A stretch of DNA of 64,000 nt from Escherichia phage NHEP36. The notes beneath the pieces are model-generated. The model ran no database searches and had not been told where the DNA came from. It saw only the letters and a program-made list of their open reading frames with translations. The stretch lies in sequence record PQ511151.1. One strand, 5' to 3'. Shown one piece after another: positions 50,575 through 51,791 of this stretch (position 1 is its first letter; the number at the start of each line of letters is the position of its first letter). Made by a program: the position numbers and the translations under genes.

Positions 50575-51597
50575 ATGGCTGAATGGATAGATAATGAATT
50601 TGCTTATCGTGCGTTTTCTCACCTACCTCGTTTTAGACAAATCAATAATTCAAGCACATTTAAATTAACATTTCGATGTCCAGTTTGTGGCGACTCGCAG
50701 ACAGATGCAATGAAAGCTCGCGGATGGTATTATGGCGGTACTCCTGGTAATGTACATTGCTATAATTGCCAATACCACAATACAATTTCCGGATACTTAA
50801 AAGAGTATGATGAAGAGCTTTATCGCGAATATCTAATGGAAGTTCGTAAAGAAAAAGCTAGAATGGAACCAAAGATTGAAAAGGTTCCTGAACATAAACC
50901 AGAACCGGAGAAAAAGACTATAAATTCTTTGCCGTCTTGTTCTCGTCTAGACAAGTTGCCTGAAGAGCATCCTATTGTGAAATATGTTAAGTCTCGATGC
51001 ATTCCTAAAGAATCATGGAACAGATTATGGTTCACATTAGAATGGCCTAAATTGGTCAACAAGATTCAACCTGGTACGTATAAGAAAGAGATTCCCGAAC
51101 CACGTTTAGTTATTCCTATTTTTAATAAAGATGGGAAGGCTGAGTCATTCCAAGGACGTGCACTTCGTAAAGATGCTCCTCAGAAATATATCACTATTAA
51201 AGCGTTTGAGTCTGCAACAAAAATTTATGGTGTTGAACGTGTTAAGGAAGGAGACGTCTGGGTAATGGAAGGCCCTATTGATAGTTTATTCATACCCAAT
51301 GCAATCGCTATTACAGGCGGCTCAATAGATTTAGATGTGGTACCATTTAAAGAACGTCGGGTATGGGTAATGGATAATGAACCTAGGCATCCGGATACTA
51401 TAGCTCGCATGAAGCGATTAGTTGATGCAGGCGAACGTGTCATGTTCTGGGACCGAGCTCCATGGAGATCAAAGGATGTGAATGATATGGTAATGAAAGA
51501 AAATGCAACACCACAAGAAATTTTAGAATATATGAAACAGAATATTTCAAGTGGGTTGCATGCTAAAATGAGATTATCTCGTTATTCTAAGATTTAA
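50575..51597 (+). CDS. 61: DNA primase gp61
   Basis: Zinc ribbon CPVCGDS...CYNC and toprim region; 340 aa, matches T4 gp61. Confidence 0.92.
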   Translation: MAEWIDNEFAYRAFSHLPRFRQINNSSTFKLTFRCPVCGDSQTDAMKARGWYYGGTPGNVHCYNCQYHNTISGYLKEYDEELYREYLMEVRKEKARMEPKIEKVPEHKPEPEKKTINSLPSCSRLDKLPEEHPIVKYVKSRCIPKESWNRLWFTLEWPKLVNKIQPGTYKKEIPEPRLVIPIFNKDGKAESFQGRALRKDAPQKYITIKAFESATKIYGVERVKEGDVWVMEGPIDSLFIPNAIAITGGSIDLDVVPFKERRVWVMDNEPRHPDTIARMKRLVDAGERVMFWDRAPWRSKDVNDMVMKENATPQEILEYMKQNISSGLHAKMRLSRYSKI

Positions 51598-51791
51598 ACA
51601 AGCCCTATAATAGCAAAGGCCAAATCAACTACAGTATCCAATGGAACAGAAGGAACCATAACACCATGGGCAACTAACAATGGTGCAATCCCGAAGTTCC
51701 ATGAAATAATGCCACCTACAACTATTGCAGCGATAGCAGTTTTCTTTTTATTGCCTTTAATAGCGTTGATTAACGATGGAAGTTTAAACAT
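51594..51791 (-). CDS. hypothetical small membrane protein (convergent, minus strand)
   Basis: 65-aa ORF in the 61-56 gap; minus-strand AAGGAG RBS 5 nt before ATG; two hydrophobic segments. Confidence 0.55.
   Translation of the reverse strand: MFKLPSLINAIKGNKKKTAIAAIVVGGIISWNFGIAPLLVAHGVMVPSVPLDTVVDLAFAIIGLV

Follow-up and report, generated by a model that had tools for sequence, protein, structure and literature searches.

What is a single short open reading frame (ORF) doing on the opposite strand between genes 61 and 56 of Escherichia phage NHEP36, and does it encode a protein at all? We addressed this question in a window of 64,000 nucleotides from this phage (sequence record PQ511151.1; by the window we mean the whole stretch of DNA that was analysed), in which the ORF runs from an ATG start over positions 51594-51791 of the minus strand and specifies 65 amino acids. 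This ORF is a genuine gene under purifying selection, and it is conserved across the Tevenvirinae. The properties predicted for its product point to the inner membrane, and a comparison of sequence profiles suggests a distant kinship with a family of phage holins that may or may not extend to function.

The evidence for a protein-coding gene comes from substitution patterns and from conservation. Codon-aligned pairs with unsaturated synonymous sites, covering Mosigvirus, Tequatrovirus, Gaprivervirus and Jiaodavirus, gave ratios of nonsynonymous to synonymous substitution rates (dN/dS) of 0.12-0.31. Differences between homologs were most frequent at the third codon position, less so at the first and least at the second (16, 3 and 32 differences at positions 1, 2 and 3 in one comparison, for example, and 30, 12 and 41 in another). 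A preliminary description of this locus, made from the sequence alone, had let the case for the gene depend on its conservation in related phages, and many relatives do carry it: tblastn identified homologs in 858 phage records, 691 of them with at least 80% query coverage. The reading frame, the length (57-72 amino acids), the ribosome-binding site and an upstream motif were kept across at least eight genera, down to roughly 20% protein identity, and motifs such as WN(F/Y)...P...G persisted among members that share merely 20-30% of their residues. Plus-strand genes overlap the ORF only through a 4-nucleotide overlap of stop codons.

The arrangement of the gene was conserved as well. It converges with the primase gene in every genus inspected, namely Mosigvirus (where it is RB69ORF029w), Tequatrovirus (T4, T6 and fPS-2), Gaprivervirus, Moonvirus, Jiaodavirus, Gelderlandvirus and Kanagawavirus, and also in uncultured or metagenomic relatives; individual examples are RB69, T4, T6, P479, KM16, KpV477, S16, Entb_45, L110 and L111. 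The gene and the sequence features around it are as follows.

51594-51791, minus strand: protein-coding gene of 65 amino acids (MFKLPSLINAIKGNKKKTAIAAIVVGGIISWNFGIAPLLVAHGVMVPSVPLDTVVDLAFAIIGLV), supported by the ORF listing, a PHROG 2024 match and dN/dS; ortholog of RB69ORF029w.
51797-51802, minus strand: Shine-Dalgarno sequence AAGGAG, seen in the sequence, with a spacer of 5 nucleotides (ATATT) to the ATG.
51813-51820, minus strand: late-promoter-type motif AATAAATA, the A(-13) variant of TATAAATA, seen in the sequence, with the ATG 21 nucleotides further on.
51594-51597, both strands: TTAA palindrome, seen in the sequence, that provides both stop codons (gene 61 on the plus strand, the small gene on the minus strand).
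50575-51597, plus strand: gene 61 (DNA primase), the convergent neighbour, identified by phrog_47 (E=1e-101) and the annotation of relatives.
51880-52401, plus strand: gene 56 (dCTP pyrophosphatase), the divergent neighbour, identified by phrog_173 (E=1.6e-45), Pfam dUTPase_2 and the annotation of relatives.
51822-51846, plus strand: middle-promoter-like site for gene 56, seen in the sequence and composed of a MotA-box-like CGCTTTA, 12 nucleotides and TAGAAT.

In the window as a whole, 114 plus-strand ORFs selected by a greedy procedure cover 92% of the DNA, and the ORF at 51594-51791 is the sole protein-like minus-strand ORF of at least 40 amino acids that lies within a plus-strand gap. The preliminary description had placed a 65-residue minus-strand ORF in the gap between genes 61 and 56 and had called it the only convincing gene on its strand; it is there, and our ORF and gap analysis of the window bears out that it is the only credible one in a plus-strand gap. 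The finer details of that description were also borne out, including the consensus AAGGAG five nucleotides before the ATG, the late-promoter-like motif upstream of it and the overlap with the stop codon of gene 61. The TAA of gene 61 occupies 51595-51597 and the stop of the small ORF is the complement of 51594-51596, so that the two convergent genes leave zero intergenic space owing to their common TTAA. An identical 4-nucleotide tail-to-tail overlap was found in T4, T6, RB69, KM16, S16, Entb_45, L110, L111 and the b-copy of P479. The ORF and the primase gene are 18 nucleotides apart in Jiaodavirus and L011 and are separated by a homing endonuclease gene in YenP8, and the ORF is retained in these genomes too.

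When would such a gene be expressed? Among 18 loci from at least eight genera, 16 have an ATAAATA core 12-33 nucleotides ahead of the start codon (distances being measured to the start of the gene, or of the first gene where two form a unit), while the flanking intergenic DNA had otherwise diverged. The motif singled out in the preliminary description is thus of a conserved type. Entb_45 has a perfect TATAAATA, and KM16 and S16 both have ATTAAATA. A strong (A)GGAGG lies 4-6 nucleotides before the start in nearly all 18 loci, with AGGGGG in P479 and GGAGG in Entb_45. The late promoter of T4 is TATAAATA at -13 to -6 (PMC1524935), and among 50 T4 late promoters in a published list, nine have A at -13 (PMC2988020), a variant that counts as an accepted T4 late promoter (PMC2988020, PMC1524935). 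RB69 and other relatives conserve T(-13) poorly (PMC1524935). Placing the motif at -13 to -6 (PMC1524935) predicts a transcription start at about 51806-51807 and a leader of about 15 nucleotides.

The distribution of the core in the window is also informative. ATAAATA occurs 11 times, against an expectation of 29.6 +/- 5.8 (a depletion of about 2.7-fold), as if stray late promoters were selected against in the early region. Five of these sites are on the minus strand, and one of the five is at the correct distance upstream of the small ORF. Six of the 11 lie about 21-33 nucleotides upstream of a start codon, at 2151(+), 9655(+), 9878(+), 20741(+), 51813(-) and 52409(+), and the six genes concerned include soc and a T4-lysozyme-like gene (MNIFEMLR..., about 2190) that likewise has AATAAATA. 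Taken together, these signals offer good indirect evidence, not proof, that the small gene would be transcribed late.

At the other end of the gene, a scan for intrinsic terminators at the convergent junction found none, and folding of the minus-strand RNA beyond the stop showed nothing remarkable (z=-1.06). The middle-promoter-like site at 51822-51846 on the plus strand stands back-to-back with the late-promoter motif; its CGCTTTA resembles the MotA-box consensus. In Yersinia phage fPS-2 (L026 355-440) the corresponding spot, immediately ahead of the ORF and on the opposite strand, is annotated as a predicted middle promoter, and an early-strand terminator is annotated inside the first 49 nucleotides of the small ORF. 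T4 has a hairpin that matches this terminator, and none is obvious in the window.

The encoded protein is predicted to be membrane-bound. The AlphaFold2 model (mean predicted local distance difference test score, pLDDT, of 78) has helices at residues 3-13, 15-41 and 51-62 and a loop at 42-50, and hydropathy and charge analysis gave a net charge of +5 at the N-terminus and -2 in the C-terminal part (residues 42-65). The membrane helix is followed by a conserved loop, HG..P.VPL(D/E), and then by a short, hydrophobic C-terminal helix of 12-14 residues. TMHMM predicted one transmembrane segment in the RB69 ortholog, at 21-41 (Nolan et al. 2006). The product is therefore probably a small inner-membrane protein with one true span and a cytoplasmic N-terminus. 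A membrane protein with two hydrophobic helices had been proposed in the preliminary description: the model, the hydropathy and the published TMHMM prediction all agree with a membrane protein and with one clear transmembrane helix (about 15-41), and the second of the two helices is just the short hydrophobic one at the C-terminus.

The protein belongs to a family that has been catalogued and given no function. Its residues 1-65 align with the whole 65-position profile of PHROG 2024 ("unknown function"; E=2.6e-27), and all 21 of the diverse relatives that we examined match the same profile. Records of close relatives label the gene as a hypothetical protein, and RB69ORF029w was treated as a novel RB69 ORF (Nolan et al. 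2006). Scans against NCBIfam and PADLOC found no significant family for the window protein or for distant relatives, nor did a Pfam scan of the distant relatives. A profile search of the Protein Data Bank (PDB) sequences gave chance transmembrane matches only (E>=0.14), word-indexed protein searches recovered close relatives only, and Foldseek against viral predicted structures returned family members only, one of them automatically named "Holin". Searching 1.84 billion representative proteins exhaustively with a profile yielded just 14 clusters, all of 45-72 amino acids. The family is narrow, being essentially restricted to T4-like phages plus a few other phage contigs. Some records carry the product names "head morphogenesis protein", "DNA packaging ATPase" or "Holin", which we rejected as unsupported automatic transfers. 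Literature searches for the T4 or RB69 ORF found nothing specific.

The copy in T4 deserves separate mention. It encodes 66 amino acids with 55.6% identity to the window protein and lies at 17738-17938 on the plus strand of NC_000866, inside the 309-bp gap between dam and gene 61, with AGGAGG 6 nucleotides before its ATG and GATAAATA 21 nucleotides upstream. No coding sequence (CDS) is annotated for this homolog in NC_000866.4, and in the collection that we searched the exact T4 protein was found in read-archive assemblies only, with no NCBI or UniProt accession. T6 has ATT at the position of the ATG in T4 and fPS-2, so its start may be this ATT or an in-frame ATG five codons on; the T6 record annotates the shorter form, as "putative head morphogenesis protein". 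That hundreds of genomes list the gene as a hypothetical protein is known. New here are the missing CDS for the T4 copy in the reference record that we examined and the likeness of the family to a shortened relative of TeaA/GTA-type holins.

Several relatives carry more than one copy. A diverged paralog (MGTxFYQIWKL...WNL..VP.AATQ...), which also belongs to PHROG 2024, stands in tandem with the main copy in Gaprivervirus and in some Mosigvirus-like contigs. It comes after the main copy in P479 (L005 2207-2407) and before it, with an 8-nucleotide overlap, in L010 and L011 (2305-2508), and it is seemingly truncated in Yersinia phage P8 (L006 2215-2316). Beyond the T4-like phages, one distant member (among L107 129-308, L108 5001-5213 and L109 5001-5210) lies beside a gene with a RelA_SpoT domain on a 2-kb contig, another lies towards the end of a prophage-like region with a gene for a T4-type lysozyme 1.5 kb away, and another is between a tail-tip gene and an integrase gene.

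The resemblance to holins appears in sensitive profile comparisons. The distant member P0052 had weak hits to the holin PHROG 3427 (E=5e-4) and to PF11351 (GTA_holin_3TM; E=0.03), and three family members touched another holin PHROG, 11161. A permissive tblastn search with P0052 reached gp44 of Roseobacter phage CRP-125, a protein of 134 amino acids that is a clear member of PF11351 (E=1.9e-15) and is encoded between tail-fibre and maturase genes, which is where the holin gene lies in T7. We then used hhalign to compare a profile of 21 family members with PF11351 holins. The probability was 92.5% (P=4.9e-7, score 40.0) against a set of 9 holins and 90.9% (score 40.1) against a set of 89, and the 44-45 aligned columns matched residues ~20-64 of the window protein to the last ~50 residues of the holin core. 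Global column shuffles of the family alignment (150 in number) scored 10.6 on average and 19.3 at most, 150 shuffles within structural blocks scored 12.3 on average and 22.8 at most, and the reversed alignment scored 8.9. As negative controls, Imm, Sp and an unrelated 67-residue holin-annotated protein gave probabilities of 0.14%, 0.36% and 0.11%, respectively.

Individual residues follow the same alignment. The near-invariant P47 of the family falls on the holin invariant P103, and its invariant G63 on the holin invariant G119. Some holins also have the W-N-F/Y-x-x-x-P spacing of the family, and P0052, alone among family members, retains WRxxxGW at the holin spacing. PF11351 includes TeaA of ICP1, a holin with demonstrated activity (PMC7182436). 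On these grounds we lean fairly firmly towards regarding the window protein as a truncated distant relative of PF11351, and not as a member of it. Literature searches for a link between PF11351 and T4-like phages found nothing specific.

What, then, might the protein do? The reading that we favour, at about even confidence, is that it is a holin-derived accessory protein of the inner membrane, expressed late, that tunes membrane integrity or the timing of lysis and is not the main holin. Under this reading, gp55-directed RNA polymerase would transcribe the gene late in infection from the A(-13) variant promoter AATAAATA, opposite to the surrounding early and middle genes, and the message would be translated from the strong AAGGAG. 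The product would keep its basic N-terminus in the cytoplasm, cross the membrane with one helix and continue into a loop and a short C-terminal helix, and residues ~20-64 would derive from the C-terminal membrane core of PF11351 holins. The protein would accumulate and probably oligomerise in the inner membrane late in infection, and it would act through the conserved helix-loop-helix core. T would stay the holin that triggers lysis, with the small protein as a modulator only. The late transcript would probably also be antisense into gene 61, because the two genes abut tail to tail with no terminator between them.

Several observations weigh against this reading. Profile-profile comparison is the only source of the holin link: the Pfam gathering threshold of 24.8 bits was not reached (the best member scored 15.3 bits, E=0.03, and two of the 21 members hit at all, at E>=0.03), the window protein had no Pfam hit even at E<=1, and when a holin profile was run with HMMER against 992 ORF segments of the window, the small ORF ranked second with a non-significant E of 2. 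A small size and at least one transmembrane helix are expected of a holin and were found here by AlphaFold2, hydropathy and TMHMM, but the hydrophilic, highly charged C-terminal domain was not, the charge cluster being N-terminal, and there is a single full-length transmembrane helix only. The window protein ends in ...AIIGLV, without a charged tail of the RTFEK type (R-T-F/Y-E/D-K..G), and it is also without the N-terminal ~60-70 residues of the holins and their invariant GWRP..GW motif. The preliminary description had suggested a holin- or antiholin-like product, and that suggestion survives in part, through the specific profile match to the C-terminal core of PF11351, and fails on the charged C-terminal tail and on an adjacent endolysin gene.

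The genomic setting adds further points on the same side. No endolysin or spanin gene is adjacent, the neighbours being those for primase and dCTPase, and the lysozyme-like gene is about 49 kb off in the window. Adjacency to an endolysin gene is a weak guide in T-even phages because the T4 holin gene t is likewise unlinked to e. With t-null mutants of T4 there is no lysis and phage keeps accumulating; it follows that the T4 homolog cannot stand in for T and does not depolarise cells alone, and a self-sufficient holin is unlikely. The contexts of the three distant members outside the T4-like phages contain no clear lysis cassette and are ambiguous; just one of the contigs has a lysozyme gene. 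As for late expression, the list of RB69 late promoters based on a hidden Markov model omits this site (Nolan et al. 2006), the fPS-2 record has no late promoter annotated in the stretch shown, and literature searches for antisense or late transcripts of T4 at this locus found nothing specific and no transcript data.

The alternative that survives best, and that we hold to be quite possible, is that the gene encodes a real late membrane protein with a job unrelated to lysis, the likeness to the holin core reflecting distant ancestry or convergence only. It could be an accessory factor for the envelope or for assembly, it could block superinfection or a host defence, or it could serve another phage protein as its membrane anchor or partner. 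Functional assignments are absent (PHROG 2024 is of "unknown function", and Pfam, NCBIfam and PADLOC gave no hits), the gene is far from the lysis genes and its product misses holin hallmarks, the holin similarity is non-significant at the level of HMMER, and distant members are in accessory regions after tail genes or beside the RelA_SpoT gene. T4-like phages, moreover, already have a complete lysis system in T, RI, RIII, E and the spanins. The PF11351 profile match speaks against this alternative, being specific and surviving both the shuffles and three membrane-protein controls. Late timing would also suit lysis or assembly better than exclusion, which is early in T4, and the idea of a protein of the superinfection-exclusion type, raised in the preliminary description, gains nothing from Imm or Sp, to which no similarity was detectable. 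On balance, a non-lysis role is nearly as likely as a lysis-related one.

It is improbable that the locus works mainly in cis, with antisense transcription into gene 61 shutting off primase or early-strand expression late in infection, or colliding with read-through, and with the ORF being secondary. The 4-nucleotide overlap with gene 61 is kept from T4 to S16 with no intergenic terminator, and both strands of T4 DNA are transcribed at different times at several sites (PMC2988020), as this account would have it. It is contradicted by the strong purifying selection on the amino-acid sequence, by protein motifs that are kept at just 20-30% identity, by the retention of tandem paralogs and by the persistence of the ORF where it is separated from the primase gene (Jiaodavirus, L011 and YenP8). 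An antisense effect on gene 61 is possible alongside a coding role, but it cannot explain conservation at the protein level. Lastly, an ORF that arose by chance between genes 61 and 56, in promoter or 3' untranslated DNA, and whose annotation was spread by gene callers would fit the shortness of the ORF (65 codons) in AT-rich DNA, the lack of a CDS in the T4 reference record and wrong product-name transfers in relatives such as that in T6, but this extremely improbable account is effectively refuted already by the substitution pattern and dN/dS described above, along with the frame, length, ribosome-binding site and upstream motif conserved over at least eight genera where no overlapping plus-strand gene could impose that conservation.

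A bolder version of the favoured reading, which we regard as speculative and rather unlikely, is that T-even phages, T4 included, carry a second, cryptic holin-derived gene, which the reference record of T4 leaves unannotated. This gene would be a truncated core of the TeaA/GTA type, expressed late from the "wrong" strand beside the primase gene, that modulates the lysis clock of the T holin or lysis inhibition, for example as a dominant-negative piece of a holin or by conditioning the membrane potential. If so, it would be a new component of one of the best-studied lysis systems.

The consequences differ with the reading. Lysis timing and lysis inhibition have T4 as their reference organism, and the list of T4 genes is usually regarded as complete. 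The T4 record has no CDS for this gene, which is under purifying selection, and therefore screens and omics studies keyed to the T4 reference annotation are expected to miss it. If the link to holins is true, T-even phages would have kept a remnant or accessory that stems from another, unrelated lineage of holins, which would bear on how holins evolve through truncation and domain loss and would provide a simple candidate where lysis timing varies for unexplained reasons. Should the link prove false, the finding is still a correction to the T4 annotation, and the gene encodes an otherwise ordinary conserved hypothetical membrane protein.

Over 50500-52500 the window shares 98-99% identity with Mosigvirus (RB69/JS09-like) coliphages, vB_EcoM_TU01 and phage SF among them, and the local order is dmd, imm, sp, 61.2-like, 61.1-like, gene 61, the small reverse ORF, gene 56, soc, and mrh with the mod genes. 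In this phage group imm directly adjoins spackle (sp), upstream of gene 61, which by correspondence with a relative puts it at about 48590-49140 of the window; in T4, imm is located elsewhere, near gene 42/43. The larger stretches with no convincing ORF on either strand are 4527-4662 and 63455-64000, and scans of the whole window for tRNA genes and Rfam families, these two stretches included, were empty.

Among known systems, Imm and Sp of T4 are likewise small envelope proteins, Imm being a small membrane protein as well, and their genes belong to the same block, a few kb from the small gene. They are on the early strand, whereas the small gene is read from the other strand and is preceded by a promoter of late type, and no sequence similarity was detected between either of them and the family in the hhalign comparisons given above. 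The T4 holin T and the antiholins RI and RIII work at the inner membrane, as the window protein is predicted to do, and in the same phages. All three are late-expressed; T, of 218 amino acids, has a large domain in the periplasm, and RI is secreted into the periplasm. No sequence relationship between them and the window protein was seen, although no comparison aimed at one was made. We know of no rapid-lysis mutant screen that has mapped to the small gene.

The PF11351 holins, such as TeaA of ICP1 and the RcGTA holin, are small phage inner-membrane proteins like the window protein, and they have in common with it a C-terminal core with W-(N)-F/Y-x-x-x-P, a glycine, a conserved proline, P-(L/M)-(D/E)-x-V and a final (I/L)-G-L. 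They differ from it in size, at ~130-150 amino acids against 65, so that the window protein is half as long. Several of those examined, all within our first set of nine, are encoded next to an endolysin gene, which the window gene is not, and unlike them the window protein co-exists with an unrelated holin, T. The closest counterparts of all are RB69ORF029w and the other members of PHROG 2024, which are direct orthologs: they have the position, orientation and length of the window gene with no difference, and RB69ORF029w also has the identical upstream sequence.

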